Assembly (NCBI GenBank): GCA_022703645.1
Contig: JAKLDG010000001.1
Location: 338,814 to 402,813 of the forward strand
Source: Patescibacteria group bacterium
Lineage (GTDB): Bacteria; Patescibacteriota; JACPGU01
Reading direction: 5' to 3'
DNA length: 64,000 nt
The translations under genes and the position numbers were made by a program. Positions 10,071 through 63,876 of this stretch are shown here, one piece after another; within the stretch, counting starts at the first letter, position 1; the number at the start of each line of letters is the position of its first letter. Below the pieces are notes generated by a model. The model saw only the letters and a program-made list of their open reading frames with translations. It had not been told where the DNA came from and ran no database searches.

Positions 10071-10109
10071 GGTCTATATTTACTTAATAATTATTTCGCA
10101 GCTAACAAA

Positions 10110-10197
10110 AATATCCAATACTCAATATCCAATATCCAATCAATAACCAATAAATTAAATATCCAATTGGGTATTGGGTGTTGGATATTGGTCATTC
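10110..10197. repeat. array of CCAATA/TATTGG palindromic repeats (ATATCCAAT ... ATTGGATAT) in the leuS upstream region
   Basis: Direct and inverted ATATCCAAT units. Shares the 17-mer GGATATTGGTCATTSSA with the sites at 15.8 kb and 61.25 kb. Confidence 0.6.
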
Positions 10198-10483: not shown

Positions 10484-10613
10484 AAATATTAATTAATTTT
10501 CAATTTTACAATTCTCAATTTCCAATCAATTCTCAATGATTCAATTTCTAAATGCTATCGCAAAGCGATACCTACAATGAAAATTGCAAAATTGAGAATT
10601 GAAAATTTCCTTA

Positions 10614-11561: not shown

Positions 11562-11702
11562 AGTGATAAATTTAAAATTTCTAAATTATAAATTATAATA
11601 TCTAATAAAATGTCCAAAGAAAAATTCTAAATATTTTGATTTTTTGTCATTAAGATTTTTATTAGAAATTATAATTTAGATATTATGGGAAAATTATTAT
11701 TT

Positions 11703-15620: not shown

Positions 15621-15730
15621 CCCTTTCTGTTTTTAAAATAACGCGCAACAAGTGCGACTTGCATATTATACTACTAATTTTTTGACTTAACAAGAAGGTT
15701 TTTGTAAAAAAAGCGCAGAGGAGGTATAAT

Positions 15731-15838
15731 AAATATCCAATACCCAATACGCAATACTCAATCAATTTTATAATACTCAATACCCATTGGATATTAAATT
15801 ATTGGATATTTATTGGTCATTGGACATTGGAAATTGGG
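15731..15838. repeat. array of CCAATA/TATTGG palindromic repeats between divergent genes, overlapping a candidate promoter
   Basis: aaatatccaatacccaatacgcaatactcaat ... attggatattaaattattggatatttattggtcattggacattggaaattgggtat. A candidate TTGGAC ... TATAAT promoter pair sits at about 15817-15845. Confidence 0.6.
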
Positions 15839-15864
15839 TATTATAATTTTTGCATAAAAATACT

Positions 15865-22343: not shown

Positions 22344-24521
22344 ATGTATTTGTATTTTGCATTTACAGGATTATTTAATGCTATAGTTAGCACTTTATTA
22401 GGTATTTTTGTATTTTTCAATAATTCAAAAAACAATATTAATCGCTCGTTTGCTCTTTTCTGTTTATTTTTTACGATGTGGTCTGCCGCATATATATTTT
22501 GGCCATTATCGCAAAACGCTGAAGGTACACTTTTGTCTTTTAGATTACTGCATATTGGCGCTGCTTATGTTTCTGTTGCTTATTTACATTTTGTTTGTAA
22601 TTTCCTGGATGTATATAAGCAAAAAAAAGTAATAGTTATAATTGGATATATTTTAGCATCTATACTAGTTCCATTTATTTTCACTCCATATTTTATTGCT
22701 GATATGGTTCCAATATTCTCAATGCGCTTTTGGGCAGTTCCTGGGATATTGTACCATTTTTATCTTGTGCACTTTTTTGGATATTTTGCATATTCGTCTT
22801 ATTTGTTATTTAAAAGTTATAAAAAATTATTGGGAGTAAAAAAGGTCCAAATTCTATATATTTTAGTTGGTTTTGTTTTGGCTTTTTTCGGGGGATCAAC
22901 AAACTATTTTTTATGGTATAAAATTAATATACCTCCTTATCTCAATATTCTTGCTTGTTCATTTGTAGTATTTACTGCCTACGCGATTGTAAAGACGCGG
23001 TTTTTAGACATCAAATTCGTTCTTCGTTCCTCTTTTGTTTACATTTCATCTCTTATTACAATTATTATCCCTGCAGTATTAATTAAGTTTATTGTTGGTG
23101 GGGAATCAGTTTTTAAAGCAACTGGATGGATTGATCTAATCATTGTTATTTTTGCCATTGCTGTATTTCCAAAAGTTAAAGAATATTTTTACAAAATCGC
23201 GAATAAGTATTTTTTCTCATCACTCTATGATAGCGCCGAAGTGATTGCAGACCTGTCTGATAAACTGCGATCAACCCTTGATATAAATAAAATTGATGAC
23301 TATATTACGAATGCTTTAATCCAAGCATTTCATTGCAAAGCGATTGGAATTTTGAATTATTCCAGAAGAACCGGGGACTACAACCTTGTCCATAATAAAG
23401 GGTTTGCGTTCAAGGGAAGAAAGAGATTTCTCGGCGATAAGGGATTGCACAAAAAATATGTTATGAAAGATGAACCTTTCCTGACATCCGAAATTAGAGA
23501 TAATCGCAAATATAAAAAGACGGTTTCTGTATTGGAAAAATTTGACGTAGAAGTTTTAACGCCGTTAAACGTTAAAGATAAGACAATCGGCCTTATCGCA
23601 ATCGGAGCAAAAGAATCCGGTGATTCATATAATCAACAGGATATTGAGCTTTTGGGAATTGTCAGCGCGCAGTCGGCAATTGCTATTGAAAACGCTATTT
23701 TATATGAAAAAACACGCAGATTTACAAAAACTCTGCAAGTAAAGGTTGATAATGCAACGGCTCAAATTCGCCACAAGAATGAAGAATTGAAAAAACTCGA
23801 TAAGCTCAAAGACGAATTTATTTCCGTCGCCAGCCATCAGCTGCGAACTCCGCTGACCGCCACGCGCTGGGCGCTGGAATTTCTGATTAAAGATAATAAA
23901 GGAAAACTCAACCGCAAACAGCTTGAGAGCGTTCATGAGCTGGAAGACACAAATTCAAAACTTATAAAACTCGTCAATTCACTTCTGAATGTCTCCCGTA
24001 TTGACGAGGGACGCCTTTCTATCACGCCAGTACCAACTGACATAGTTGCCGTGATGAAAGAAATCATGCATGAATTTGAACCGATTGCGCGCCACAAGAA
24101 TTTGAAAGTTATCACACACTATGATAAATTGCCAAAAATCAAATTTGATCCTGTTGTTATTAATAAAGCGATACATAACTTCGTTTCAAACGCGATAAAA
24201 TATAATAAAGACGAAGGCCGTCTTTGGATAAATGTCGAGAAATATGATAAAGATAATCTGGTTATCAAGGTTCGCGACGAGGGAATCGGAATACCAAAAG
24301 CCGAGCAGGCAAATCTATTTGCGAAATTTTACAGAGCATCTAATGCTGCTACTTCAAATACCGAAGGAACCGGACTTGGACTTTATATTGCCAAAAGCGC
24401 CGTAGAAAGCTCCGGAGGAAAGGTTTGGTTCGAATCAAAAGAAAATGAAGGGACAACTTTCTTTGTGACATTACCACTGAAAGGCAGTAGGGCGAAGAGA
24501 GGAGAAAAGAGCCTGGTCTAA
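22344..24521 (+). CDS. membrane sensor histidine kinase (multi-TM sensor + GAF + HisKA + HATPase)
   Basis: AGGAGGG RBS. About seven N-terminal TM helices, a GAF-like region, H-box SVASHQLRTPLTA, and G-boxes GTGLGLYIAKS. Confidence 0.85.
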   Translation: MYLYFAFTGLFNAIVSTLLGIFVFFNNSKNNINRSFALFCLFFTMWSAAYIFWPLSQNAEGTLLSFRLLHIGAAYVSVAYLHFVCNFLDVYKQKKVIVIIGYILASILVPFIFTPYFIADMVPIFSMRFWAVPGILYHFYLVHFFGYFAYSSYLLFKSYKKLLGVKKVQILYILVGFVLAFFGGSTNYFLWYKINIPPYLNILACSFVVFTAYAIVKTRFLDIKFVLRSSFVYISSLITIIIPAVLIKFIVGGESVFKATGWIDLIIVIFAIAVFPKVKEYFYKIANKYFFSSLYDSAEVIADLSDKLRSTLDINKIDDYITNALIQAFHCKAIGILNYSRRTGDYNLVHNKGFAFKGRKRFLGDKGLHKKYVMKDEPFLTSEIRDNRKYKKTVSVLEKFDVEVLTPLNVKDKTIGLIAIGAKESGDSYNQQDIELLGIVSAQSAIAIENAILYEKTRRFTKTLQVKVDNATAQIRHKNEELKKLDKLKDEFISVASHQLRTPLTATRWALEFLIKDNKGKLNRKQLESVHELEDTNSKLIKLVNSLLNVSRIDEGRLSITPVPTDIVAVMKEIMHEFEPIARHKNLKVITHYDKLPKIKFDPVVINKAIHNFVSNAIKYNKDEGRLWINVEKYDKDNLVIKVRDEGIGIPKAEQANLFAKFYRASNAATSNTEGTGLGLYIAKSAVESSGGKVWFESKENEGTTFFVTLPLKGSRAKRGEKSLV

Positions 24522-24525
24522 AGTA

Positions 24526-24560
24526 AATTAAAAATTAAAAATCAAAATGTAAAATGACAG
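24526..24560. repeat. AT-rich repeat (AAATTAAAAATTAAAAATCAAAATGTAAAATGACA family), left flank of the 4HB gene
   Basis: Matches inverted copies at 24921-24985, 26872-26985, 28725-28765 and 30576-30685. Confidence 0.55.
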
Positions 24561-24919
24561 ATGCAAATTTTAAAAATGAATTTAAGAAAAGATTGTACTC
24601 GTTCGTTTTACGATTAATTAAATATATAAATAGTCTCCCAAGATCACAATCAAACGATGTTATAGGAAAACAACTGTTAAGAAGTGGTACGAGTATATTG
24701 GCTAATTTTATAGAAGCTAATTCAGCCAGCAGTAAAAAAGATTTTACGAACTTTTTTAATCATAGCTTAAAATCTGCCAATGAATCAAAGGTTTGGTTAA
24801 CACTTTTCCGCGATACAAACCCTATAAACAATGAGAATGTTTTTTTGATAAAAGAACTTTGCGAGATTGCAAACATCTTAGCATCAAGTATATTAACTTT
24901 AAAAGGAAAAAAGAAATAA
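24554..24919 (+). CDS. four-helix-bundle protein (23S rRNA intervening-sequence protein family)
   Basis: Family-like helices (GKQLLRSGTSILANFIEANSASSKKDF ... SANESKVWL). Bracketed by inverted AAAATGTAAAATGACA-type repeats; the start codon lies inside the left repeat. Confidence 0.65.
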   Translation: MTDANFKNEFKKRLYSFVLRLIKYINSLPRSQSNDVIGKQLLRSGTSILANFIEANSASSKKDFTNFFNHSLKSANESKVWLTLFRDTNPINNENVFLIKELCEIANILASSILTLKGKKK

Positions 24920-24920
24920 T

Positions 24921-24985
24921 TTTACATTTATTATATGTCATTTTGATTTTTGACATTTACATTTTACATTACATATTTTAACCTT
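24921..24985. repeat. AT-rich repeat (TGTCATTTTGATTTTTGACATTTACATTTTACATT), right flank of the 4HB gene, upstream of cysS
   Basis: Near-identical to 26941-26985. Confidence 0.55.
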
Positions 24986-25047
24986 TAAATTATCGATAAA
25001 TTATGCTAATATTACTATAATTTACAAAAACTAAGCAAACCGACACT

Positions 25048-26857: not shown

Positions 26858-26871
26858 CTTTTTTAACTTAA

Positions 26872-26985
26872 ATAAAAAATTAAAAATCAAAGTGCAAAAA
26901 ATTGGGGTTCCTGCGGAATGATATCTAATTTTTAATTTTACATCTGTCATTTTACATTTTGATATTTACATTTTACATTGCATGG
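26872..26985. repeat. AT-rich repeat cluster (AAATTAAAAATCAAAGTG ... TGTCATTTTACATTTTGATATTTACATTTTACATT) upstream of pilB
   Basis: Same family as 24526-24560 and 24921-24985. Confidence 0.55.
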
Positions 26986-27020
26986 GATAATTATTAAAAT
27001 AAAAACAAAACTTTTTAATC

Positions 27021-28724: not shown

Positions 28725-28897
28725 GGGTCCAATTTTTAATTTTATAATTTTTAATTTTTAAAATTGTCTAAAAAAACACGTACCAAAACCAAAACTTCAA
28801 CCATAACTGGTGTTCAAATGGGGCTTCTCATTTCGACTATTTTTATTATAGTTGGACTTTTTTATGCTGTTTTTAGCTTTTTTCAATAAAATAACAG

Positions 28898-30548: not shown

Positions 30549-30575
30549 AGTTTTATTATTATATCATAAAAACAT

Positions 30576-30685
30576 ATCAAAATGCAAATATCAAAGTGTA
30601 AAATGACAAATTAAAATTAAAAATGTATAATATGCCAAAGGCATACCAAAATTTTACATTTTGATTTTTAAATTTTAAATTTATC
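30576..30685. repeat. palindromic AT-rich repeat unit (GTGTAAAATGACAAATTAAAATTAAAAATG ... CAAAATTTTACATTTTGATTTTTAAATTTT) with a central tatgcc-aaa-ggcata hairpin
   Basis: Both arms match the AAAATGTAAAATGACA family. Lies between divergent genes (the PspC-domain gene and xth). Confidence 0.55.
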
Positions 30686-31450
30686 ATGAAGATTATTTCT
30701 TTCAATATTAACGGCATCAACTCGGCCATCAAATATGGTTTGCGGGATTTTATATCTCTAGAAAATGCCGATATCTACTTGTTCCAAGAAGTAAAAAATT
30801 CCTGGGATACTATTGATGACTCTTTGCGGAAAATTCCGGGTTACGAAACATATTTTTACCAAGCAGCAAAAAAAGGATATTCCGGACTTCTTGCATACGT
30901 GAAAACGAAGAACAAACCAATCGGATACAAGGAGGGTATAGGGTTTAGGGTTATAGACGAACAAGCGAGAGTGCAGACATTAGAATTCCAGGATTATTAT
31001 TTAGTTAATACCTATCTACCACATTCAGGAAGGGAACTTGAGAAACTTCCATTCAAACGTGAAGTAAACGAAAAATTCCTCGAATACTGTGAGTCTTTGA
31101 AAAAGAAAAAGCCACTTATAATTGCAGGGGATCTGAATGTTGCGCACAAAGATATTGATCTCGCCAATCCTCGCGCCAATATGGGAAACGCCGGATTTAC
31201 GACGGATGAGAGAGATTTTTTCGATAAATTCTTATCCCACGGATATATCGATACATTCCGCGAATTTGTAAAAGAAAATGGCCACTATACCTGGTGGAGC
31301 TGGCGGACAGGGGTACGCGAAAGAAATATCGGTTGGCGCATTGATTATTTTCTCGTCTCTGAAAATATTTCAAAACGAGTGAAAAAGAGTTGGATTCTGA
31401 AAGACATTCTCGGATCCGATCATTGCCCGATAGGATTAGAAATCCTGTAG
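30686..31450 (+). CDS. xth: exodeoxyribonuclease III (AP endonuclease)
   Basis: ISFNINGI; YTWWSWRTG ... WRIDYFLVS; GSDHCPI. The stop codon TAG lies inside a CTGTAGGGGC REP-like terminus. Confidence 0.9.
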   Translation: MKIISFNINGINSAIKYGLRDFISLENADIYLFQEVKNSWDTIDDSLRKIPGYETYFYQAAKKGYSGLLAYVKTKNKPIGYKEGIGFRVIDEQARVQTLEFQDYYLVNTYLPHSGRELEKLPFKREVNEKFLEYCESLKKKKPLIIAGDLNVAHKDIDLANPRANMGNAGFTTDERDFFDKFLSHGYIDTFREFVKENGHYTWWSWRTGVRERNIGWRIDYFLVSENISKRVKKSWILKDILGSDHCPIGLEIL

Positions 31451-46500: not shown

Positions 46501-49500
46501 ATGATTGTGGTAAAGAAAAAGAAAATACCTTTAAGACCGTTTTTAATCCTCTTAGTGTTAATAGCTGGGTTTACTTTGAGTTTGGGTTTAAAACCAAATG
46601 AAAAAATAAAAGCGGCTTATTCTAATCCTTGCAAGACAGCTGGCACGTATGCTGGTTATGTAGTTGACGCGAATCTTAATGTTATTATTCCGGCTTACAA
46701 TAATGCTGTGTTTGGTGACACTTTCTATGATAGTACCAGCAAAGAAATTCATTGTAAAAGCATAACGATAGAAACGGGAGCGACTTTAGATATATCGCCA
46801 AAAACTACCGGTGCAAGTAAAACAGGCGGCACAAATTATAGAAGATTGGTTCTTGATGGTGATTTGAATATCGCAAGCGGTGGAACGCTAAATCTATATG
46901 GCGGCAATATATATAATACCGGCGGACTCAATGGCACTGGGATAACAAATGATGGAAAAGGATATGGTATGAATGTTATGGTTGGTGGAAATGTTTTGGT
47001 TGAATCCGGCGGATGGATATCAGCTGATGGCAAAGGGTATGAACATAGTAAGGGGCCGGGAGCAGGTGTGGCTGAACCCGGTTCACAAGGCGCTGCATAT
47101 GGTGGGGCTGGTCCGGATGGAACCAATTGTTATGGGAAATATTACGGTTCGGTTTCTGACCCGATAGAACTCGGCAGCGGCAGTAGTTTGGGAGTAGGAG
47201 GCGGAGTAGTTGATATAACTGCCGCGGGAACAATATTAATTCGCGGCGTAGGCAAAATTACGGCAAACAGCATTGGAGAGGGATCGGGCGGTTCAGTAAG
47301 ACTCAGCGCCAATACTATTAGTAGTACAATTGACGGCGTAAATATACCTTCTATTACAGCAAATGGCGGTAGTGGGTCTTATTACAGTGGCGGCGGCAGA
47401 ATCGCGCTTTTTTATAATTCATCAAATTTTGGCGGTGATATCAAAGCTATTGCTAACGCCTATGGAGGAGCTGGCACTGTATTCAAGAAAAAAAATATCG
47501 AGGCTTATGGTGATTTAATTATTACAAATAATTATCAGGATCATACCGATAACCCTCCGGACTATACTCCATATGCATATACAAAAATTGGCAAAACAAA
47601 AATCGATTCTGGCACATATAAGAATATCACAGTTAATAAAAGAGCAAACGCTATTATTGAATCTAGTAATATAGTAAACATCAATGGTGGTACTTTTGAA
47701 GTAAATAATTCCAAACTTGAAAATAAAGGCACTTTAGCTTCACAGACTTCCGCAGAAAAATTTCTGGCGAAAAATACCGCTCGGATACTTAATAGCGGTA
47801 CAGGGTTATTTAGCCTGTCCGCGAACTCAAACGCTATATTTGACGGCATAGACACTTATTTTGAGAACCAAAATAATATTATCCAAAATTTCGCCAATTT
47901 AACTATCTCTAACGGGGCTGTCATGAGCCATGCCGTCAATGATGCTACCGGTGTGACAAATTGTCTTAGGAATTCAATTGATAATCCAGTTGGCGGCGCG
48001 ATCCCTCCTTGCGAATATAAGGATTGGGGTGATGGCTATGGGAAACATTGGAATCAAAAATATACCTTAAGGATAAATGCCACAAGTGTTAATATTGATA
48101 ACAAAAGTTCGATAGATGTTTCACAAAAGGGATTTCAAACATTACCTGGAACATCAGGTTTTGGGCCGGGAGGGTCAAGTACGGCTTACTCAATCGGTGG
48201 TTACGCGGGAGGTTCTTATGGTGGCAGAGGTGGTAACGATAATACTGGGGGAGTAAGCGCAGATATTTATGGCGACTCGGATGGAGACCTGAATAATCCA
48301 AATGATCTGGGAAGCAGCGGTGATACCGGCTATACTGCCGGAGGATTAGTAAGAATAACAGTTTTGGGCGATATTGTTAATAATGGCTCTATATTATCAA
48401 ATTCAGGTACGGTTTCAAATGGTTTTGCCGGTGGGTCAGGAGGAGGCATAAGATTGGATGCAGACCGGATTCTCGGAGCTGGAAAAATTTCTGCCAACGG
48501 CATGCCCGGAACGATAGATCTTGCGAAAGGCGGCGGAGGAGGCGGAAGGATCGCGATCACATACAAAACCACAAAAGATTTTTATGGTCCAATTACCGCT
48601 TATGGAGGGTCTACTGATGGGGGACCCGGTACGATACTTTTTGCAAACAATAGCTCGGGAGCCTTAATTGATAAAGAACTTGTTATTTCTAATTCAGTTT
48701 TAAACGACAATCCAACCAAAATAGGAGGCGGTACGTATAAAAATATTACCGTAAAGAATACCTCGCCAACTCTTACTGACCTGACTTTAGCCGCAATCGT
48801 TTCTGGACAATCCGTTGTCATGCAAGATGGTGGGAATTTTGAAGTTAACCAAACTAATTTAACTAATAGCGGAACTATTTCTTTATTAGCCGGAACGTCA
48901 AATTTAGTTATAAAGGGAAAATCAAATTTTATTAATATCGGACCTACCGCCTCTCCTGGCATTAACGCGAATAGTACTTCTAAAGTTATTTTGGACAATG
49001 CCAATTTTGAAAATAAGAATAATATTGAACAGAATTTTGGCAATCTTTATATCCAGAATGGAGCAATATTAACGCATACTCAAAATGATTACTTAACGGT
49101 AAATTGCGTGAATACTTCCTGTACCAACCAAGACCTGGGTGATGGCAATGGAATGCATTACAATCAGGCTTATACATTAAGAATACATGCAAACAATGCT
49201 TTAATTGATAAATTTAGCGCTATTAATGTTGATGGCAAGGGCTATGACATGGGTAGAGGACCGGGTAATAATGGGTCTGCTAATTCTGCCGGAAGTTATG
49301 GCGGAGCTGCGTCAAGCGGCGACAGTACCTATGGTTTAGCGGATAACCCTAATGATTTGGGCAGTGGAGGTTATTCCGGTAGTTATGGTGATAATACCGG
49401 CGGCGGTTTAGTAAGAGTTAGGGCAGACGGTAATATAACAGTTGATGGCTTTATTTCTTCGGATACAACATCTGCCGGATCTTTTGACGGCGCTTCAGGA

Positions 49501-52500
49501 GGCGGTATAAAATTAATAGCAAATAGTATTCTTGGCTCCGGTTCTATTTCCGCTAGTTCTAATTTGACAAGCGGGAATATTGGCGGAGGTGGCAGAATAT
49601 CTCTCATAGCTACGCAAAAAAATTACAGCGGCACCGTCTCTGTGAATAGAGGTGGAACTGGAGCGAATTACGGTACTATTTATGATTCTCTGGCTATCCC
49701 TACGACTTATGGTCCGAGCGCAACACCATTAACTTATAATACAAAATTAAGTAATAATACTCCATATATAAAAGCCGATAGTTCAGCAACAACGATAGGT
49801 GTTGATGAAGGCAATGCAGTTAGCACTGGATATACTCCAGATTCTGATACCTCACTTCTTTTGAAAATGGATAACTGGGGAGATGGTCTTATTTATGATT
49901 CTTCCGCAAAATCAATACCTGTTATTAAATATGGCACAACTTCCTTCTCTGATACTGTTTTGAAAACTGGAACGCATTCACTATTATTTAATGGTTCCAC
50001 AGGTCGTTTAATACCTGATGGTACTTTTACATCAAATTTCCAGTATGGCACCGGAGCTTTTACTATTGATACTTGGATTTATCCAAAATCTGTTACGACA
50101 CTTCAAACAATTTATTCTCAAAAAAATAGCGCGACACCAACAACTAATGCATCATCATTACAAATTACTACTACCGGTCAGCTAAAATATACTGAAAATG
50201 GAGTTTCTATTATTTCTCCTGTCAGTACTATAAAACTAGGCAGTGATGTCGGATGGCAACATGTTGCTTTAGTTAGAGATAATTTAGGGGTTGAAAGATT
50301 ATTTTATAATGGTTCCGTAGTAGGAACACAGTCGTCTACATACTCCAAATTCAGCGATGTCGGTATCGGATGTTTATACCAGTCTACTAATACATTATTT
50401 TATAATGGCTATATGGATGAGTTCCGTATCAGTAAAGGAGTGGCGCGCTGGACCTCTGATTTTATTCCATTATCTGATGATGGCAACTGGGAAAAATTAA
50501 ATTTGAGAGCAACAAGGACTAACCCTAGCTCCGATACTAAGCTTTTGCTTCATCTCGATGGAACAAATGGATCAACTACCTATACTGACAGTTCTCCTTC
50601 AAACCATACAATATTGCGTTACAACACACCAACAATTTCCACTAACACTAGTAAATTTGGCGGCGCGTCAGGCGCTTTCCCGAGAGTAACCTCTCCATAC
50701 TTTGATTATATTTATGCTAATGATAATGTTAATGATTGGACTTTTGGCGCGGGTGATTTTACGATAGATTTTTGGGCTAACTTTTCAGATAATGTCAGGC
50801 AAGGTGTTCTTGCCATCGGCTCCGGCGCTTATGCTCCAATTGCTTTTGAAGTAGTAAGCAACAATCTTAACGTCTACATGACTAGTAATGGTAGCAGTTG
50901 GGATATCGCTAGCGGTCAACCAGTTGGCCAAACATTTGGTCCGGTAACACCAGGCGTTTGGGTACATTATGCGCTAACAAGGAATGGAAATACTTTTTAT
51001 CTTTTTGTTAATGGTACTACTGTAAACTCTTTTATGTCATCATTAAGTTTATGGAATAATAGCGGCGCTTTATATATAGGGCAATATTTTGGGTCTGTTA
51101 CAGCCTTTAAGGGCTATCTGGATGAATTTAGAATTATAAAGGGAAGAGCGGCTTGGAGTAATAATTTTACTCCTTCTACAACTCCCTATGAAATTTATGA
51201 TGACCCGTCTTTCAATGGAACGGTAGATATTGGCATAATAGATAATCTTGCAGGTGAATATGTTTTTTCCGGCTGCAACGGAGCGAACTGTACTTTTTCA
51301 GATTCAAAAGTTACAGCGAGATTCATAAATGGTATTGCTAATTTAGCAGTAAAAGTAAAAGACAAAAGAGATGGGCAGATAAAGCATCACGGTTTTTCAG
51401 GGCTAAAAATTAACTCCGTTTCAAATGTATCTTATATAAATAATAATCAAATAACCGGAGCTATCGAAATTCAAGATAGAACCCCAGAAAGATCAATACC
51501 ATCAGGTCCTGCCCCCGCAGGAAGTATTACTAAAGGAACTGCTGGCGCTACTATTTTTCCAATGGGAGCCGGTTTTAGTATTATAAATAATTCCAAAGGA
51601 ACCAGTCAGAGCCAACAAGATTTGGGTGGTAATTTAGTGGTTCGAGGTCCATTAGCATCCGCGCCATATCGTCTTTACCTTGATAAAAACATAATGTATA
51701 AAAGAGGTGATTATTTGAATAGCGACGGAACTATTAGCAGCGTGGCAACAGATTATCAAGTGGTTTGTGTTAATACAGCGGACTATACCCAAACAAAAAT
51801 AAGATGTAATGATGATCTGAGCACCAGCGCTATTCCATCAGGATTGCGAAATTATGGTATATATACATTTAATAAAACTTATAATTTCTATACCCAGAAC
51901 GAAACCTCTAATTATTCAGCGCCTTCAATATCTCAAGTTCTTATACCAGCTAGCAACCCAACTGTGCCTGTTATTTCTCCTTTAACAATAACTCCGACTA
52001 ACGGAAAATTAAATCTCAGCTGGAATAATCCAATTGATAATATCGGGCAAACAAAAACTTTGATCGTTAGAGGTATCGATAGTATTCCTACTTTCGTTCC
52101 AAGTGATGGGACGGATTATAATACCTGGTCAAATACTACTGTAACCGGAGAAGAGATGATCTATGACAGCACTAATGTCGGGGCGGGAAGTGAAGTAAAA
52201 AACTTTGACGATGCCAATGTATTTTTTGGAACCAGATACTGCTATACAATCTATGCTCAATATATTGGTTATATTTATTCGGTAGGGACTTCTGCTTGCA
52301 GCACTCTAACATCAATTATTGATCCGCCAGTCAACCCAACTATCACGATTCAAGGAATGATGATAAATATCGGATGGACAGCGCCACCTTCCGGCAATCC
52401 TGATAATTACCTGATTGTTAGAAAAAAAGGCACAACAGAACCAAACTGGAATCCAACCGGGGAAACTGCTGACTATAATATTGGTGATACGGTTGGCGAT

Positions 52501-55500
52501 GGTGTTGTTGTCTGTAAAGGATTTTCATGCACTGATCAAAATGTAAATGTAAATACTTTGCCAACCCAGTATTATTATAAAATTTATGCTCAGTATGGAA
52601 CCGCGGCTCCCTTCAGTTATTCTGTCGGTTCAACGGCAGTAAGCGGAAATCCTAACCCGGAAAACCCCCAAAAGTTTGATAATACCAATGAAGCAACACC
52701 AAGTGTAACACTGGACAATCTATCAGGACCTTACACGCCTCTTAATACATTTAAGATTGCAAATTATCTTGTCTGGAAAGCAACAACTCCGGCTGATTGC
52801 TCAGGGGCTTGGACGCCAACCAATGGAGCTGACTATTCAGGAGTGCAAGGAACTGGAAATATCATTTACAAAAACCCAGCAGCGCCAATATCATATATTG
52901 ATACTGCAGTTACAAATGGCGTTGGTTATTGTTACAAAATCTTTGTCCAATATAATGGTGAAACAATCAATACTACTGATCTAATGTATTCTTCTGGATT
53001 AAGTCTTTGGACTCAACCGCCAAATCATAATCCAACAATTAGCGTAAATAGCATCACCCAAACGATCGGCACGGATAATGTGGTAATTAACTTTAATGTA
53101 AATGATATTGATCCATCTGATAATGGCAAGCTTTCTGTTGGCTTTGCTGTTACAAATCCGGTTTCAGGATGCAGTATTAGCACTTTAACCGGACCAATAA
53201 CTAACCTCGGTGTCGGAGCTCATAGCGTTACTTGGACCGCCACTACCACTAATGGAACCGCGGGGGATTGTCCAGGCGTAGAAATGTTAGCCGGTTCTGC
53301 TCAACTGACAGCCACTGTTTCCGATTTTATCGGAGCCACCGGTACCGCTAGTCCAACTTTCTCTCTTGACACCAAAGCTCCCATTGCAAGTTCCAGCCTT
53401 ATTTTGTCCTCCAAAAACAGCAACTCCATTACTGTCGCTACCGGAGCTACCGGGGCTACTGATGGAAACATAAAAACTACCGCTGCCTATAAAGTCTATT
53501 ACAAGCAAGGATCAACGGTAGACGAAGTAAGCGGTACGCAAATACTACCAAATATTAATAGTTATGTTGCGGGACAGATATTTACTGCTTCCTCGCTAAT
53601 AACTAACCAGCAATATTCATTTAATATCTGGGCTTATGATAACTATGGACATAAAACTGCTGCTACGGTATTAAATGTCAGCACAAAAGGAAAATCTGTT
53701 ACAGGATTTACAGCTATAGTTCAAGGTATGAGAGTCCATCTGAGTTGGGACGCAATGCTGCCGGCGCCAGATAAGCATCTGGTTATTCGTAAGAAAGGAA
53801 CATCCGCGTCTACTTGGACGCCAACAGATGGTATTGGAATATATGCTGCTGGCAACACGGTAGATGCAGATACGATAGTAGTTTACCATGGCACAGGCGT
53901 CACTCTGGATGATGATGCAGTTGATGGAGCAGCCTATACCTATACTATCTTTGCCAACTATTCTGGAAATCTATATTCAGAGGGGGTTTCAGCTCCATCG
54001 ATAACACCGAATGCTCTGAACGCGTCGTTATCTGCTCCTGCCTATATACCAAATGGATCAAATTATGATATCGCACTCAACTGGGTAGCCCCCACACCAA
54101 GTTACAGTTTACAAAAATATGTAGTAGTTAGAGAAGTTGGGTCTCCTACTTGTTTAATCGAATGGACGCCAACCAAGGATAATAACTATAATGCATTAGA
54201 TCCAACCGGCTTTACTAATGAAGAAATTATCTATTCCGGAACCGGAACCACTACTACTGATAATATGGGAGGAACGGGAGTTTCTTCTGGTACAAATGTT
54301 TGCTATAAGATCTTTACTCAATATCTGGGAGATGATTTAGCGGTTCCAACAAACTTAGTTTATTCCGCTGGAATTGCCGCTACCTATGTACCGCCAAATC
54401 TGCCTCCAGAGATAGAGATTGGTTCAGTCACAGCGCTACAAACTACCGGAACTGAAAATATTGTTATAGCTTACCGTGTTAGAGATTCCGACTCAACCAA
54501 TTTGAATATTACATTTAGCATGATTGATCCGGGAGGCTCCACTTGCCAAATGAATTTAACTGATAATTTGGCGGGGATTGATGGCACTTACTATACTCAT
54601 ACCGCTACTTGGAATGCAGGGCTGGCAGGAGAGTGCCCGGGATTTGAAGTAACAAATGCTGTTATCCAAGTAACTGCCAGCGATAGTCTTAATTCTGTTT
54701 CGCAAAACTCCGCTCCATTTCTGCTTGATACTCTATCCCCAAGGCTTCCAACTCCAACTGTTTCTAACTTTAATTTAACTAATTTTTCATCAACAGGAGA
54801 TAAGATATTCTTCAATCTAGGATCTAATTCAACAACTGATACTAATGCGCTTAACTACAAGATATACTATGCTTCTGGGGGAAGTGTTGATGAAACAGGA
54901 ATACTCATAACAGGAGCTCCTATAGCATTTACTCCTGGAGCTGCATATTCGGTAACCGGATTAACACCGGGACAAAACTATACATTTAATATTTGGGCTT
55001 ATGATAAATATGGGCATAAAACTTCTGCGACTTCCGTAACATATTCAACTATTGTGCCTGCTCCGGCAAGCTTCTCTGTAACTCCGCATGGAATGAGATT
55101 ATCACTTACTTGGACGGCTCCTGTCGGTGGAACCCCAGACTATTATCTGATAGTTAGAAAAGCTAATTCAGATCCAATAATAGCTCCCGCTAATGGTTCT
55201 ACATACAACCTGGGGGATATTTTGAGCGGGGGAATGGTAGTCTACAATTCAACCGGGACAAGCCTTGACGATGATAATATTGATGACGGTCCTTACTATT
55301 ACCGAATTTATGCGCATTATTCAAATGGCAATTTCTCACCAGCCTTGGCTGGCAATGCGATTGCAGTGGCGGAAGGACCAAATACATTCAGCGCAACCTC
55401 AAGCCCAGCGCCAGTAGTCACATACATAGACACTCCACCAACAAATAATTTCAGTTTCGAGAACTATCTTATTTGGAAGAAAGAACAACCTAGCTGTACT

Positions 55501-57534
55501 ACTGATGGCAATCTGGTAGACGGTACGGTATATAATTATCTTGATTCAGTAGATGGGGGAACGATTATTTATAAATCAAACATTGATCCTAATGGTATGT
55601 CTGATATCTCAACTACAATAACTGGCCATACTTACTGCTACAAGATGTTCGTAGAGTATAATGGAGAAACTACTAATACTATCTATTCTAATGAAATGTA
55701 CTTTCAAATCACTCCTCCAAATAATCCTCCGACTCTTTCCGCTCTTTCTGTTGTTCAAACAATAGGTAGTGACGATGTTGTAATCGGATTTACTATTAAT
55801 GATCCGGATGGAATTGACGCTGGCAATCTCTCAGTCGCTTTATCAATTGTTAACCCTCCAGAAGGATGCAGTATCGGTACAATATCTGGTTCTTTGACTG
55901 GTTTATCAAATGGTAGTTATTCGGTTACTTGGACTGATGCCGATACTACTTGCCCTGGGCTTGAATTATCTAATGCTGGTTTAGAGTTTATTGCTCACGA
56001 CCTGATAGATTATTCATCTGCGCAGATAAGCAGTTTTTTACTCGACACTAAAGCGCCTACACTAATAGAGGGGCTAACATATGACCCACCAACCGCAGAT
56101 ACTATTGTAGTACGCCTAAGCACCAATACATTCTTCTTAAATCCTTTGAGTGTTGATCAAAATCTAAAAGGAGGAGGAAATAGCTTTAAGATTTACTACA
56201 AACAAGACAGTACCGTTTCAGAATCCGATACACAATTAGCTGCCTTTGATAATTATATCTTAGGGCAAGACTATACGGCCACACCATTAGGATCTAATTC
56301 ACAATATTCATTTAATATCTGGGCTTATGATAACTATGGACATAAGACAGCATATACTGATCCAGTCAAGCCAACTACCAGCGGTCTCAACGGACCACCA
56401 GTAGTACAATATGTTGCTCAACCAGTCCAAGCTGCTGGTACTGGTAATATCAATTTCAGTTTTGAAGTAAAAGATCCAGACTCGGATGGTTTAACTATCA
56501 CATTCTCACTAATTAATAATCCAGTCGGTTGCAGTATCTCTGGCGTTACTGGGTTTACCAATCCTGTATCCTCCACCAGTACTTTTGCAACAATTATCTC
56601 CAGCTGGAATGCGAAATTAACTTGTGATGGAGCGGATCAGTCTGACCTCAAGATCAGAATTAGCGCGGATGATGGAAACGGACATACAGCAACTATTGAT
56701 TCAGATCCATTTACTATCGATACGAAAAATCCTGTCTCTCCAGGAAACCTATCATTCCCAGCAGGAACTACTTTTGCGAATCAGGTTAGTGTAAAGACAA
56801 ATACTATTTCCGGTAGCGATACTAATGCCGATGATTGGCATGTATATAGGGTTGATGGAAATACTTTCCCAACGGATCCATTCTCTCCTGCTCTAACTCC
56901 AATTAAATTATATGATCCTTATATACCAGATGACGTATTTATTGATTCGGGGTTAACGCCAGATTCTGATTATACTTATAATATCTGCCTGCATGATACT
57001 TTTATGAACTTTACCTGCGCAACATCGCAAACTATTCATACACCAGCTTCAATATTAAGCTTTAATATTCTTGGTATTGCCAGTGGAATATCGGTTGGAG
57101 TTGAAACAACTAATATCACTACTACTTCTACAACAATTCCTTTTGGCAGTACTACAGTAGGGGATACAAAGGTTGGAGCGCTTGATCTACAAGGCACAAC
57201 AAATCTGGTTAATGGATATACTATTGATATCAGACAAGACCAAGATTTAACATCAGGAGGCAACACTATTCCTGCCCTTACCTCTACTAACGCTAGTCCG
57301 CAAGTATGGCCACCAACTCCAATTAGTTCTTTCTTTGGATATTCATCAATCAATCTTTCCAGATTTTCAAATGGCGTTAATTGGGCAGGATTAACTTTGT
57401 CTGACCTACCGATAGTAACACAGATAAACGGGACTCATGATGATGATGTTTTATTCAAATTATCCACCAAGAGTCCTCAACCAGCAGGAACTTATCAAAA
57501 CACCATTACTTTCTCAATAATGGCGAATCCGTAG
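46501..57534 (+). CDS. giant surface/adhesin-like protein (3677 aa): signal-anchor, Gly-rich beta-helix-like repeats, two LamG (Laminin_G_3) domains, tandem Ig/FN3-like modules
   Basis: Single uninterrupted ORF. N-terminal TM; duplicated ~400-aa Gly-rich module; LamG motifs (LLLHLDGTNGSTTYTDSS ... DFTIDFWANF; AFTIDTWIYP); four ~120-aa modules plus three FN3-like modules ending ...NIWAYD.YGHKT. Confidence 0.7.
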   Translation: MIVVKKKKIPLRPFLILLVLIAGFTLSLGLKPNEKIKAAYSNPCKTAGTYAGYVVDANLNVIIPAYNNAVFGDTFYDSTSKEIHCKSITIETGATLDISPKTTGASKTGGTNYRRLVLDGDLNIASGGTLNLYGGNIYNTGGLNGTGITNDGKGYGMNVMVGGNVLVESGGWISADGKGYEHSKGPGAGVAEPGSQGAAYGGAGPDGTNCYGKYYGSVSDPIELGSGSSLGVGGGVVDITAAGTILIRGVGKITANSIGEGSGGSVRLSANTISSTIDGVNIPSITANGGSGSYYSGGGRIALFYNSSNFGGDIKAIANAYGGAGTVFKKKNIEAYGDLIITNNYQDHTDNPPDYTPYAYTKIGKTKIDSGTYKNITVNKRANAIIESSNIVNINGGTFEVNNSKLENKGTLASQTSAEKFLAKNTARILNSGTGLFSLSANSNAIFDGIDTYFENQNNIIQNFANLTISNGAVMSHAVNDATGVTNCLRNSIDNPVGGAIPPCEYKDWGDGYGKHWNQKYTLRINATSVNIDNKSSIDVSQKGFQTLPGTSGFGPGGSSTAYSIGGYAGGSYGGRGGNDNTGGVSADIYGDSDGDLNNPNDLGSSGDTGYTAGGLVRITVLGDIVNNGSILSNSGTVSNGFAGGSGGGIRLDADRILGAGKISANGMPGTIDLAKGGGGGGRIAITYKTTKDFYGPITAYGGSTDGGPGTILFANNSSGALIDKELVISNSVLNDNPTKIGGGTYKNITVKNTSPTLTDLTLAAIVSGQSVVMQDGGNFEVNQTNLTNSGTISLLAGTSNLVIKGKSNFINIGPTASPGINANSTSKVILDNANFENKNNIEQNFGNLYIQNGAILTHTQNDYLTVNCVNTSCTNQDLGDGNGMHYNQAYTLRIHANNALIDKFSAINVDGKGYDMGRGPGNNGSANSAGSYGGAASSGDSTYGLADNPNDLGSGGYSGSYGDNTGGGLVRVRADGNITVDGFISSDTTSAGSFDGASGGGIKLIANSILGSGSISASSNLTSGNIGGGGRISLIATQKNYSGTVSVNRGGTGANYGTIYDSLAIPTTYGPSATPLTYNTKLSNNTPYIKADSSATTIGVDEGNAVSTGYTPDSDTSLLLKMDNWGDGLIYDSSAKSIPVIKYGTTSFSDTVLKTGTHSLLFNGSTGRLIPDGTFTSNFQYGTGAFTIDTWIYPKSVTTLQTIYSQKNSATPTTNASSLQITTTGQLKYTENGVSIISPVSTIKLGSDVGWQHVALVRDNLGVERLFYNGSVVGTQSSTYSKFSDVGIGCLYQSTNTLFYNGYMDEFRISKGVARWTSDFIPLSDDGNWEKLNLRATRTNPSSDTKLLLHLDGTNGSTTYTDSSPSNHTILRYNTPTISTNTSKFGGASGAFPRVTSPYFDYIYANDNVNDWTFGAGDFTIDFWANFSDNVRQGVLAIGSGAYAPIAFEVVSNNLNVYMTSNGSSWDIASGQPVGQTFGPVTPGVWVHYALTRNGNTFYLFVNGTTVNSFMSSLSLWNNSGALYIGQYFGSVTAFKGYLDEFRIIKGRAAWSNNFTPSTTPYEIYDDPSFNGTVDIGIIDNLAGEYVFSGCNGANCTFSDSKVTARFINGIANLAVKVKDKRDGQIKHHGFSGLKINSVSNVSYINNNQITGAIEIQDRTPERSIPSGPAPAGSITKGTAGATIFPMGAGFSIINNSKGTSQSQQDLGGNLVVRGPLASAPYRLYLDKNIMYKRGDYLNSDGTISSVATDYQVVCVNTADYTQTKIRCNDDLSTSAIPSGLRNYGIYTFNKTYNFYTQNETSNYSAPSISQVLIPASNPTVPVISPLTITPTNGKLNLSWNNPIDNIGQTKTLIVRGIDSIPTFVPSDGTDYNTWSNTTVTGEEMIYDSTNVGAGSEVKNFDDANVFFGTRYCYTIYAQYIGYIYSVGTSACSTLTSIIDPPVNPTITIQGMMINIGWTAPPSGNPDNYLIVRKKGTTEPNWNPTGETADYNIGDTVGDGVVVCKGFSCTDQNVNVNTLPTQYYYKIYAQYGTAAPFSYSVGSTAVSGNPNPENPQKFDNTNEATPSVTLDNLSGPYTPLNTFKIANYLVWKATTPADCSGAWTPTNGADYSGVQGTGNIIYKNPAAPISYIDTAVTNGVGYCYKIFVQYNGETINTTDLMYSSGLSLWTQPPNHNPTISVNSITQTIGTDNVVINFNVNDIDPSDNGKLSVGFAVTNPVSGCSISTLTGPITNLGVGAHSVTWTATTTNGTAGDCPGVEMLAGSAQLTATVSDFIGATGTASPTFSLDTKAPIASSSLILSSKNSNSITVATGATGATDGNIKTTAAYKVYYKQGSTVDEVSGTQILPNINSYVAGQIFTASSLITNQQYSFNIWAYDNYGHKTAATVLNVSTKGKSVTGFTAIVQGMRVHLSWDAMLPAPDKHLVIRKKGTSASTWTPTDGIGIYAAGNTVDADTIVVYHGTGVTLDDDAVDGAAYTYTIFANYSGNLYSEGVSAPSITPNALNASLSAPAYIPNGSNYDIALNWVAPTPSYSLQKYVVVREVGSPTCLIEWTPTKDNNYNALDPTGFTNEEIIYSGTGTTTTDNMGGTGVSSGTNVCYKIFTQYLGDDLAVPTNLVYSAGIAATYVPPNLPPEIEIGSVTALQTTGTENIVIAYRVRDSDSTNLNITFSMIDPGGSTCQMNLTDNLAGIDGTYYTHTATWNAGLAGECPGFEVTNAVIQVTASDSLNSVSQNSAPFLLDTLSPRLPTPTVSNFNLTNFSSTGDKIFFNLGSNSTTDTNALNYKIYYASGGSVDETGILITGAPIAFTPGAAYSVTGLTPGQNYTFNIWAYDKYGHKTSATSVTYSTIVPAPASFSVTPHGMRLSLTWTAPVGGTPDYYLIVRKANSDPIIAPANGSTYNLGDILSGGMVVYNSTGTSLDDDNIDDGPYYYRIYAHYSNGNFSPALAGNAIAVAEGPNTFSATSSPAPVVTYIDTPPTNNFSFENYLIWKKEQPSCTTDGNLVDGTVYNYLDSVDGGTIIYKSNIDPNGMSDISTTITGHTYCYKMFVEYNGETTNTIYSNEMYFQITPPNNPPTLSALSVVQTIGSDDVVIGFTINDPDGIDAGNLSVALSIVNPPEGCSIGTISGSLTGLSNGSYSVTWTDADTTCPGLELSNAGLEFIAHDLIDYSSAQISSFLLDTKAPTLIEGLTYDPPTADTIVVRLSTNTFFLNPLSVDQNLKGGGNSFKIYYKQDSTVSESDTQLAAFDNYILGQDYTATPLGSNSQYSFNIWAYDNYGHKTAYTDPVKPTTSGLNGPPVVQYVAQPVQAAGTGNINFSFEVKDPDSDGLTITFSLINNPVGCSISGVTGFTNPVSSTSTFATIISSWNAKLTCDGADQSDLKIRISADDGNGHTATIDSDPFTIDTKNPVSPGNLSFPAGTTFANQVSVKTNTISGSDTNADDWHVYRVDGNTFPTDPFSPALTPIKLYDPYIPDDVFIDSGLTPDSDYTYNICLHDTFMNFTCATSQTIHTPASILSFNILGIASGISVGVETTNITTTSTTIPFGSTTVGDTKVGALDLQGTTNLVNGYTIDIRQDQDLTSGGNTIPALTSTNASPQVWPPTPISSFFGYSSINLSRFSNGVNWAGLTLSDLPIVTQINGTHDDDVLFKLSTKSPQPAGTYQNTITFSIMANP

Positions 57535-61091: not shown

Positions 61092-61151
61092 GATTCAAAG
61101 ATATAATTTCCTTAGCCGCTTTAAAGCGGCTTTTTATTTTTCAATGAAATA

Positions 61152-61180
61152 TTGACAAATATTTTGCGTATTTATATAAT
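61152..61180 (+). promoter_or_regulatory. sigma70-like promoter (TTGACA - 17 nt - TATAAT) for clpC
   Basis: TTGACA 61152-61157, spacer 17 nt, TATAAT 61175-61180; immediately followed by CIRCE. Confidence 0.6.
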
Positions 61181-61184
61181 AGAG

Positions 61185-61211
61185 TTAGCACTCAACAGGA
61201 CAGAGTGCTAA
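61185..61211 (+). promoter_or_regulatory. CIRCE element (HrcA operator) TTAGCACTC-N9-GAGTGCTAA
   Basis: Perfect match to the CIRCE consensus inverted repeat with a 9-nt spacer, 4 nt downstream of the -10 box. Confidence 0.75.
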
Positions 61212-61221
61212 AGCACTCTAA

Positions 61222-61286
61222 ATAACCAATACCCAATTGAATATTGAAAAATTGGATATTGATTGGATATTGGTCATTGGATATTA
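61222..61286. repeat. CCAATA/TATTGG palindromic repeat array in the clpC 5' UTR
   Basis: ataaccaatacccaattgaatattgaaaaattggatattgattggatattggtcattggatatt; shares GGATATTGGTCATTGGA with 10.18 kb and 15.8 kb. Confidence 0.6.
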
Positions 61287-61362
61287 AACATTTTTATTCA
61301 AACAAAGTATTACTTAAATAAAATTTATATAGTAAGATTATAACTACAGGAGGATTAATTAT

Positions 61363-63876
61363 ATGAATATTTTTGGTTTTGATCGATTTAGCTCAAACGC
61401 TCGCAATATCCTTACTGAAGCGCAAGGCATCGCGGGAAACAACTCTGGAGTCATCGGAACAGAGCATATTCTGCTTGCAATATTAATGAACAAAAACTGT
61501 CTAGCAAATTCTATGCTGGAAAGTTTTGGCGTTGACCATGACAGAGCTGAACTCGCGATGAATTTTATGCCACAGTTTAATAATATCTATACGAATAAGA
61601 AAAGTGTCAATATTAATGAAGAAGTAAAAAAAGCTCTCGAAGCCGCGATTTTGACTGCAAAAAGATTTAACCATTTTTATCTTGGATCTGAACACTTGCT
61701 TTTGGGAATATTAGCAGACCCGAGCTTCAAAGCATTTCAAATCATTCAAAACATCGATGTTAATCCTGATAGCATAAAAAAACAATTAATTGAATTATTG
61801 CAAAATGCACCTCAACAGGACATTGAAATGATGGGTGAAACATCAGGAATGGGACCGGATAACCAGAATAAGAAAAAATCAATGCTCGCCCAATATTCAA
61901 TTGATCTGACAGCTGAAGCAGAAAATAATAGATTTGACCCTGTAATTGGTAGAACAACTGAAATCGAAAGAATAATTCATATACTTTCGCGCAGAACCAA
62001 GAACAATCCTGTGCTAATCGGCGATCCAGGCGTTGGAAAAACTGCTATTGTCGAAGGGTTAGCTTTGAAAATTATAAAAGGCGAAGTACCAATAAAACTA
62101 AAAAATAAAAAGATTTATTCGCTCGACTTGGGGAGTATGATAGCCGGTACGAAATTCCGCGGTGAATTTGAAGACCGCTTAAAAAAATTAATTAATGAAG
62201 TAGAGAAAGACCGCGATGCGATTCTTTTTATCGATGAAATTCACACGATAATTGGTGCTGGAGCAGCTGAGGGTTCAATGGATGCGAGTAATATGTTAAA
62301 GCCTGCTCTTTCTCGCGGTAAGATTACTTGCATTGGCGCGACTACGATTGAAGAATACCGCAAAAATATTGAAAAAGATGCGGCATTCGAAAGAAGATTT
62401 CAGCCTGTTGTAATTGAAGAACCGACAGTAGCTGACACCATTGAAATTTTGAAAGGTATTGCGCAAAACTACGAAGATTTTCACCAAGTTGTGATTGAAC
62501 CGGAAGCTGTCATGATCGCAGCAAAACTATCGCATAGATATATTGCCGATAGGTTCCTTCCTGATAAGGCAATTGACTTGATTGATGAAGCTGCGTCTGG
62601 TGTAGTAATAAAAGAAAAGATAGGGGAGAGCGCTGAAATTAAAAAGCTTGAAATAAAACTCAAAACAACTATCGAAGGGAAAAACAAAGCGATAGCTGAA
62701 CAAGCATACGAATTGGCTGCTCAGCTACGCGATCAAGAAAATTTCATAATAGAGGAAATTGAAAAAAAGCGAAAAGAAAAAAATGACATCCCAAGAGAAA
62801 AAAGAAAAATAGTTACTAAAGAAGATATTGCTAGGGTTGTAAATACTTGGACTGGAATTCCAGTTTCGAAATTAATTGAATCAGATTATGATAAATTTTC
62901 AAATATTGAAAATATCCTGAAAAAGAAAATTATCGGACAAGATGAAGCTATTGAAGTTATCGCCAAAGCGATAAAAAGAAGCCGTGCTGGAATTGGCAAT
63001 CCTAGAAGACCGATCGGATCTTTTATATTTCTTGGACCGACTGGGGTAGGAAAAACAGAATTGGCAAAAGTCTTGGCATCTGAAGTTTATGAGAGTGATA
63101 ATGCATTGATTAAGATTGATATGAGTGAATTTATGGAAAAGCATAATGTTAGCCGCCTTGTTGGCGCGCCGGCAGGTTACGTTGGTTATGAAGATGGCGG
63201 AAAGCTGACTGAAGCTGTGCGCAAAAAACCATATTCAATAATTCTTTTTGATGAAATCGAGAAAGCGCATCCGGAAGTTTTCAATCTTTTATTGCAAATT
63301 CTGGAAGATGGGGTTCTAACGGATGCTAAAGGAAGAAAGGTTGATTTTCGTAATACAATAATAATTATGACTTCGAATATTGGCGCGAATGAGCTAACAC
63401 GTTCCGCCGCGCTTGGATTTAAGATTGAAGATAATGATTCCGTAGAGATACAAAATCTTGCGTCTAACAATACCGATTATGAGAAAATGAAAGACATTGT
63501 TCTTGAACAGGTAAAGAGAAAATTTAATCCAGAGTTCCTAAATCGTATTGATAAAGTCGTTGTTTTTAAACCTCTTGGTAAAAAAGAGATCGCAAAAATT
63601 GTTGAAATAAATCTTGCTGAGTTAAAGTTACGATTGAAAAACGAAAAGGGAATAACTCTTGAAATCACAAAAAAAGCGATTGATTGGATCTCAAAAAACG
63701 GTTTTGATGCGGAATTTGGCGCGCGTCCAATCAGACGCTTGATCGAAAATGAAGTCGAAAATCAAATAGCAGAAAAAATCGTGAGTGGCGAGATAGAGGA
63801 GGGAGAGAAGGTTTCTATGGATCTGAAAAACGATAAAATAGTTTTTGTAGAAAAGAAAGTTTCGGTTCGTAAATAA
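61363..63876 (+). CDS. clpC: ATP-dependent Clp protease ATP-binding subunit ClpC (class III heat-shock AAA+ chaperone)
   Basis: Two Clp_N repeats; two AAA+ modules ([15 protein letters not shown]; [17 protein letters not shown]); short linker between D1 and D2 (ClpC-like rather than ClpB). Confidence 0.85.

Follow-up and report, generated by a model that had tools for sequence, protein, structure and literature searches.

In Bacillus subtilis, groESL and hrcA-grpE-dnaK are class I heat-shock operons controlled by the repressor HrcA through the controlling inverted repeat of chaperone expression (CIRCE), TTAGCACTC-N9-GAGTGCTAA, which lies between a sigma-70-type -10 hexamer and the coding region. 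The identical inverted repeat, likewise placed between such a hexamer and the coding region, stands in front of clpC in a stretch of 64,000 nucleotides (positions 338,814 to 402,813 of contig JAKLDG010000001.1) from the metagenome-assembled genome of a Patescibacteria group bacterium; the whole stretch is referred to here as the window. The two cases differ in target and repressor: clpC is under CtsR and not HrcA in Bacillus, and the repressor expected in Patescibacteria is a short HrcA of ~225 aa, putative in this genome. The predicted logic would be equal, repression being lifted by titration of GroEL; in the established model (Mogk et al. 1997, cited in PMC7737663), GroEL/ES sustains HrcA activity.

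Among Clp ATPases under HrcA, clpB of Mycoplasma pneumoniae is the closest precedent; the HrcA regulon of this species also comprises lon and pepA, as well as dnaJ, dnaK and groESL (PMC7737663). The Mollicutes are alike in their reduced genome, their few regulators and the presence of CIRCE on a Clp-family AAA+ ATPase and on proteases. They belong to an unrelated phylum, however, and their target is the disaggregase ClpB, whereas the ATPase encoded here is of the ClpC type, with UVR, a short middle domain and an LGF loop.

The clpC operons of Firmicutes carry the CtsR operator, a tandem heptad of the form RGTCAAA-NAN-RGTCAAA. An array of CCAAT/ATTGG units that follows CIRCE in the window bears a superficial likeness to it, both being heptad repeats between promoter and clpC, but the units of the array are unrelated and palindromic, and no ctsR-mcsA-mcsB lies upstream of clpC. 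With three mismatches allowed, the window holds 13 matches to the CtsR operator vs. 11.6 expected, none of them in 61092-61362, and this candidate was rejected.

Patescibacteria, or Candidate Phyla Radiation (CPR), are episymbionts with reduced genomes that have not been cultured; next to nothing is known of how they regulate their genes, and a literature search returned no paper linking HrcA or CIRCE to them. With a probability of roughly 0.7, clpC is a single-gene unit with a consensus sigma-70-type promoter and a CIRCE over its start, repressed by HrcA, the array behind it being a genome-wide repeat and not a second operator. A promoter-CIRCE module on clpC, and on hrcA-grpE-dnaK elsewhere in the phylum, offers a concrete and testable heat-shock regulon. 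As in Mollicutes, HrcA would here govern a gene that is under CtsR in Firmicutes; this extends a well-understood system and involves no new mechanism.

Promoter and CIRCE operator of clpC

The preliminary description of this DNA had placed TTGACA-17-TATAAT and, 4 nt further, an exact CIRCE in front of clpC; direct reading of 61152-61211 confirmed this arrangement (Table 1). The two hexamers match their consensus at 12 of 12 positions, and a perfect TTGACA-17-TATAAT occurs just twice in the 64-kb window. As for CIRCE, both arms agree with the HrcA consensus (18/18) and, when as many as three mismatches are allowed, its pattern is found once in the window vs. 0.02 times expected. Because it begins 4 nt past the -10 hexamer, it spans the expected transcription start. 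The upstream unit of small ORFs (open reading frames) ends in a terminator-like hairpin, and clpC is therefore a separate transcription unit.

An additional arm directly behind the right CIRCE arm can pair with it in a palindrome, GAGTGC-TAAA-GCACTC (61203-61219). This third arm was seen in the window genome only and is absent from all relatives compared. In RNA, the palindrome made of the right arm and AGCACTC might form at the expense of the CIRCE hairpin; it might also serve as a third half-site.

Pfam gives the clpC product the domains Clp_N, AAA, AAA_lid_9, UVR (432-462), AAA_2 and ClpB_D2-small, those of a ClpC-type double AAA+ Hsp100. Its score against the ClpB equivalog model is 942 bits (cut-off 1232), with ~45 model positions of the middle domain missing, and its sequence reads LGF at the position of the ClpP-docking loop. 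All the marks of a ClpC-type Hsp100, i.e. Clp_N, two AAA+ modules, a short UVR middle domain and a ClpP-docking tripeptide, are present. The database entry HRY60383.1 ("Patescibacteria group bacterium") is an identical protein, and the closest relatives, 60-70% identical, are assigned to CPR3, Microgenomates or Patescibacteria where they are named. Their conserved gene order is wecG-nusA-(x)-clpC-lactamase_B-hisS-PPIase (peptidyl-prolyl isomerase); in the window, the array is flanked by clpC itself and by small membrane ORFs.

The clpC loci of relatives were obtained via their ClpC proteins and by one metagenome pattern scan. In nine lineages with ClpC proteins 60-70% identical (the window, L082, L216, L233, L189, L083 (= L170), L086, L272 and L276), TTGACA-17-TA[TC]AAT-N4-TTAGCACTC-N9-GAGTGC[CT]A lies 5' of clpC. 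When eight of them were aligned, the only invariant columns were the -35 hexamer, five of the six -10 positions and both CIRCE arms, while the loop of CIRCE, the spacer of the promoter and all positions further 3' vary freely. Position 3 of the left arm faces 7' as an uncompensated A/C in most lineages, so that the arms are kept as sequence, without compensatory change, and therefore fit a protein operator and not an RNA helix. The retention of CIRCE in the clpC promoters of nine lineages, in a spacer that is otherwise unalignable, argues for a functional HrcA-type operator.

Over 1.59 Mb of comparison loci, 80 distant clpC/clpB loci included, CIRCE (up to three mismatches) was found only at these CPR clpC genes. 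A search of genome contigs with ClpC brought up relatives of 43-49% identity (Dehalococcoidia, Melainabacteria, Actinomycetes and others), none with CIRCE at clpC. The window lies on a 207-kb contig of ENA ERZ27257455, and the copy of this contig in a JGI sample is identical to it over 20.5 kb.

The CCAAT/ATTGG array and other period-7 repeats

The CCAAT/ATTGG palindromic repeats reported behind CIRCE are present as well (ATAACCAATACCCAATTG, 61222-61239; TTGGATATTGGTCATTGGATATT, 61263-61285). They consist of CCAATAC-type units followed by ATTGGAT-type units, at intervals of 7, 11 and 14 nt. It had been proposed that a second factor binding them may add a layer of control to clpC; this finds no support, since the same type of array also precedes leuS, a gene with an RNHCP domain and the PPIase gene. 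Within the window, TTGGATATTG (at most one mismatch) has 33 copies vs. 9.0 +/- 2.8 expected, clustered at three intergenic loci, and each array repeats the same layout of CCAAT-type units, a CCAATTGG-like centre and ATTGG-type units.

A second DNA-binding protein that recognises these palindromes (the core CCAATTGG plus repeated half-sites), co-regulates clpC with HrcA and unites it in a regulon with the leuS, RNHCP and PPIase genes would account for this enrichment, for the four arrays in ~84 kb that all lie in spacers 5' of genes, for the central palindrome in each of them and for the two that begin right after a TATAAT box. It is nonetheless quite unlikely: unit number, spacing (7, 11, 14 and 15 nt) and orientation differ at every site, the four genes have no obvious functional theme in common and the arrays have no regulator gene linked to them. 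Moreover, equally built arrays with unrelated units exist in the same genome, and relatives keep CIRCE at clpC but have other units or no array.

In these relatives, 14-185 nt separate CIRCE from the ATG of clpC, and the leaders cannot be aligned. Heptamer arrays with unrelated units occupy those of L082, L083, L086 and L274; L233 and L276 (9840-9960) have GC-rich hairpin inserts, e.g. GGTTCCGAGTTATACTCGGAACC and GGTTCTGGGTGCAACCCAGAACC, instead of AT-rich arrays; and the leaders of L216 (close to L082), L189 and L272 are short, without array or insert. Because the relatives' leaders hold unrelated arrays, inserts or nothing, the array is an intergenic repeat and not a conserved partner of CIRCE, and the leader position of clpC seems to be a hotspot where differing repeat types insert. 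The CCAAT/ATTGG array is thus not specific to clpC but a fast-turnover intergenic repeat that happens to lie in its leader.

In the Microgenomates relative L086, G-free heptamer arrays (AATACTT, CTATCCA x5 and ACCTAAA) at 9970-9996, 17427-17460 and 19049-19080 abut the ATG of clpC, of a poly(A) polymerase-family gene and of a NYN gene. They occupy the expected Shine-Dalgarno position, and no Shine-Dalgarno sequence is visible there.

Arrays with a period of 7 nt are frequent in the window. Stretches of 28 nt in which 19 or more positions match at period 7 occur in eight of its 32 intergenic spacers, vs. 0.15 spacers in dinucleotide shuffles, and periods of 5, 6 and 8-11 nt give 0-2. These tandem arrays are often inverted pairs, and the autocorrelation of intergenic DNA peaks at lags 7, 14 and 21 both in the window and in L086. 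A second layer of control on clpC, which the preliminary description considered possible, is accordingly unsupported, period-7 arrays with other units being found in a quarter of the spacers and the array itself not being kept in close relatives. The heptamer arrays serve as a warning that striking palindromes beside an operator can be genome-wide repeats and not regulatory sites.

Another family, with TTTTACA/TGTAAAA units, has six arms that align to one ~40-nt consensus, CTGTCATTTTACATTTTGATATTTACATTTTAAATT. The arms of its first copy flank an ORF (24554-24919) for a 23S rRNA intervening sequence (IVS) protein of the four-helix-bundle type (PF05635/TIGR02436). The other two copies lack an ORF and enclose a short GC hairpin, which gives them the look of an IVS or of a miniature inverted-repeat transposable element outside rRNA; the third one also has a near-consensus promoter in its left arm (30603-30631). 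The clpC array differs from this family in its units and has no ORF.

The window further contains two genes resembling those of REP-associated tyrosine transposases (RAYT), which share 67% nucleotide identity over 555 nt. Both have a GC-rich palindrome, GTAGGGGC...GCCCCTAC, between the HUH and Tyr motifs; it is in frame in the 6579-7040 copy, and the reading frame of the ~20640-21170 copy is broken. Repetitive extragenic palindromes and bacterial interspersed mosaic elements (REP/BIME) are 20-40-nt imperfect palindromes with a GTAG end, present in many copies and flanking a cognate RAYT gene. Cyanobacterial genomes carry short tandemly repeated repetitive (STRR) heptamers, reportedly described by Mazel et al. 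in 1990. Intervening sequences of 23S rRNA, finally, can hold S23p/four-helix-bundle ORFs (PMC4990558).

The window arrays resemble all three classes in being short, strictly intergenic, hairpin-forming and multi-copy. They share the 7-nt periodicity with STRR, the TTTTACA-type family flanks its PF05635/TIGR02436 ORF as IVS stems do, and a RAYT-like gene is present in the window. Unlike REP/BIME, however, they are AT-rich and without the GTAG signature, and the clpC array does not flank the RAYT-like genes. They also depart from these classes in having several unit sequences per genome, inverted arrays and no rRNA context; their mobility is putative.

Arrays of the TIGR (tandem interspaced guide RNA, Tas-associated) type comprise 5-15 units of ~36 nt, each with a pair of alternating 8-12-nt repeats and a pair of ~9-nt variable spacers, beside a Tas gene with a Nop domain, and have been described for CPR and phages (PMC12045711). 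A TIGR or CRISPR-like array (clustered regularly interspaced short palindromic repeats) was ruled out at clpC, where the units are of ~7 nt without variable spacers, the whole is ~65 nt long and palindromic, and the adjoining genes are clpC and small membrane ORFs.

If transcribed, the array would form a hairpin in the 5' leader of clpC mRNA, and its effect, if any, would probably be generic (stability or processing) and stand outside the conserved control. The RNA could have a more definite role, the array being a functional element of the leader: an extended AU-rich hairpin might determine how stable the mRNA is or how it is processed (RNase III could cut it, for instance, as it does in rRNA intervening sequences), or the structure might melt with temperature, in either case adding a post-transcriptional layer atop HrcA. 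The clpC leader folds with z = -3.95 vs. shuffles, with separate hairpins for CIRCE and for the array, and the best of the related arrays reach z values of -2.9 to -4.7. In addition, one array family flanks the IVS-protein ORF, a classic setting of stems excised by RNase III, an RNase III gene is present in the window, and several relatives have hairpin-forming inserts at the clpC leader.

Yet the insert is conserved neither in sequence nor in structure, and the short leaders of three relatives lack a hairpin. Other related arrays, with z = -0.13, -1.8 and -2.05 in a range that extends from -4.7 to -0.1, fold no better than shuffles, and close relatives lack the array. With Rfam, no family reached the gathering threshold in the window, and the matches in the clpC leader were at chance level. 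A functional RNA element is therefore rather unlikely.

It is conceivable, though doubtful, that the inverted arrays of ~7-nt units represent a new class of intergenic, IVS-like hairpin modules of Patescibacteria, some with a four-helix-bundle gene, which would enter 5' leaders by spreading or expansion and undergo processing as RNA. Control of clpC would then be double, transcriptional through HrcA/CIRCE and post-transcriptional through the inserted hairpin.

HrcA in Patescibacteria and the proposed control of clpC

A metagenome scan with the pattern TTG-N20-TATAAT-N4-TTAGCACTC-N9-GAGTGC yielded 120 contigs, in which the genes behind the promoter and CIRCE include groES-groEL, htpG, hsp20, hrcA-grpE-dnaK and Clp ATPases, with clpB-like genes in low-GC contigs. 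In ten low-GC contigs, the gene directly behind is a short hrcA, followed by grpE and then by dnaK or hsp20. Nine of the short HrcA proteins measure 222-234 aa, and that of L174 has 252 aa as called, or 228 aa if counted from its second ATG. HrcA of Bacillus and Thermotoga has ~340 aa; the short form aligns with the Thermotoga protein (1STZ) over residues 16-136 only, and reaches 178 bits against NCBIfam TIGR00331, below the cut-off of 197.

At E <= 1e-20, a profile of the short proteins retrieved 7998 proteins. The top 120 of these are all 222-248 aa long, with PF01628, and are usually labelled "hypothetical protein"; those named belong to Patescibacteria, Magasanikbacteria, Falkowbacteria, Buchananbacteria and Parcubacteria. 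Because a short HrcA (~225 aa) is encoded behind the identical promoter-CIRCE geometry in many Patescibacteria, HrcA together with CIRCE is common in the phylum. CCAAT arrays were not found in the hrcA-bearing metagenome contigs searched for them.

A consensus promoter with a CIRCE-like palindrome was also observed before non-chaperone genes (L165, L190, L201, L217; L194, L199; L177, L228, L243, L247; L160, L249), which code for nucleotidyltransferase-like, HNH-like and unknown small proteins and for a sugar-nucleotidyltransferase. The palindrome may be used there by other regulators, or may have been recruited to defence-island genes.

Concerning viruses, 21 IMG/VR contigs (L129-L149) were noted. 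TATAAT-N4-CIRCE lies directly 5' of hsp20 in 18 of them, with a cyanophage-like appearance, before htpG in L138 and before a bacterial-type (Firmicute-like) hrcA in L146. Apart from these genes, viral contigs scanned with the array pattern and with TATAAT-N4-CIRCE showed no more than scattered matches, and none came from this clade.

For clpC, HrcA binding and heat induction are predicted from the HrcA/CIRCE/GroE model of Bacillus subtilis and Mollicutes, and any effect at the RNA level is likewise a prediction. In normal conditions, an HrcA dimer kept active by GroEL/ES would occupy CIRCE and block RNA polymerase at clpC. Unfolded proteins would titrate GroEL, HrcA would become inactive and clpC would be derepressed. 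HrcA would thereby fill, in this clade, the role that CtsR has for clpC in Firmicutes.

Several results weigh against this interpretation. In the first place, tblastn over ~84 kb of this genome (the window with 10-kb flanks) found no hrcA, groESL or dnaK, the HrcA queries being that of B. subtilis and ten short ones of CPR. Among the best 120 HrcAs per search (profile; P0224), none came from a contig bearing the ClpC of this clade, and a comparison of the accession blocks of ClpC and HrcA proteins revealed no shared genome. Furthermore, CIRCE is absent at clpC in two relatives, L275 (ClpC 68% identical) and L273 (57%), and the link is therefore dispensable or was repeatedly lost. Lastly, the arrays at leuS and at the RNHCP gene start a few nucleotides after TATAAT boxes, and these could have a shared operator or leader function.

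The earlier statement that the window holds no hrcA, groEL or dnaK remains valid, tblastn with long and short HrcA, GroES/EL, DnaK, Hsp20 and HtpG being negative. In 242 kb of clade loci, the same method found no hrcA, groES/EL, dnaK, hsp20 or htpG either. Of the HrcA-type control of clpC that had been suggested, one part is borne out, namely a genuine CIRCE at a consensus promoter, conserved in nine lineages; the HrcA of the same genome is putative.

As tblastn detected hrcA neither in the ~84 kb of this genome nor in the clade loci, and as CIRCE-like palindromes and consensus promoters also precede non-chaperone genes in some metagenome contigs, the clpC palindrome, instead of being an HrcA site in this clade, might act as a conserved hairpin in the RNA or bind another protein, hrcA having been lost. 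This reading is highly improbable in view of the arms, which are 18/18 consensus and invariant in sequence, with a variable loop and no compensatory changes. HrcA is, besides, widespread in Patescibacteria with the identical promoter geometry, and the target, clpC, is a classic heat-shock gene. Repression of clpC by HrcA is hence the interpretation retained here.

Features and further genes of the window

Table 1. Coordinates of the elements at clpC, of the repeat arrays and of related features (window positions, unless a contig is named).
Feature	Position	Strand	Remarks
Terminator-like hairpin	61114..61131	+	AGCCGCTTT/AAAGCGGCT, then T run; closes upstream small-ORF unit
-35 hexamer TTGACA	61152..61157	+	Invariant across 8 aligned lineages
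-10 hexamer TATAAT	61175..61180	+	17-nt gap from -35; TA-AAT invariant across 8 lineages
CIRCE operator TTAGCACTC-N9-GAGTGCTAA	61185..61211	+	Predicted HrcA site, 4 nt (AGAG) after -10; left arm TTAGCACTC 61185-61193, spacer aacaggaca 61194-61202, right arm GAGTGCTAA 61203-61211
Third arm AGCACTCT	61212..61219	+	Directly 3' of right CIRCE arm; partial extra left half-site
CCAAT/ATTGG array	61221..61286	+	AT-rich, palindromic, ~7-nt units, in clpC 5' leader; hairpin predicted
Shine-Dalgarno AGGAGG	61348..61353	+	9 nt 5' of clpC ATG; direct reading
clpC	61363..63876	+	837-aa ATPase: Clp_N + AAA + UVR (short middle domain) + AAA_2 + D2-small
Second array copy	10109..10195	-	Spacer 5' of leuS (7161-10070, minus strand)
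Third array copy	15731..15840	+	Right after TATAAT box, 5' of RNHCP-domain ORF (15850-16347)
Fourth array copy	L001 15757-15825		hisS-PPIase spacer, just past window end, before PPIase gene
Spacers with period-7 arrays	10071-10252, 10484-10613, 11562-11702, 15621-15849, 24920-25047, 26858-27020, 28725-28897, 30549-30685		
CAATTTT/AAAATTG array	10495-10612		Around small GC hairpin
TTTTACA/TGTAAAA family	24515-24560 + 24915-24985; 26860-26990; 30575-30690		First pair of arms flanks the ORF
RAYT-like Y1 transposase gene	6579-7040	-	54 bits vs. cut-off 80
Second RAYT-like copy	~20640-21170	-	Degenerate
Short hrcA, first ORF after CIRCE	Contigs L174, L180, L198, L220, L221, L235, L237, L255, L264, L267		

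Three other genes drew attention. The leucyl-tRNA synthetase encoded by leuS (969 aa) has a NUDIX domain inserted at residues 407-506, and the adjoining NusB-like gene (5307-6152, minus strand) is also a NUDIX fusion. As for the giant ORF of 3677 aa at 46501-57534 (plus strand), its signal-like N-terminus, Gly-rich beta-helix-like repeats and Laminin_G_3 match are typical of a CPR surface protein.

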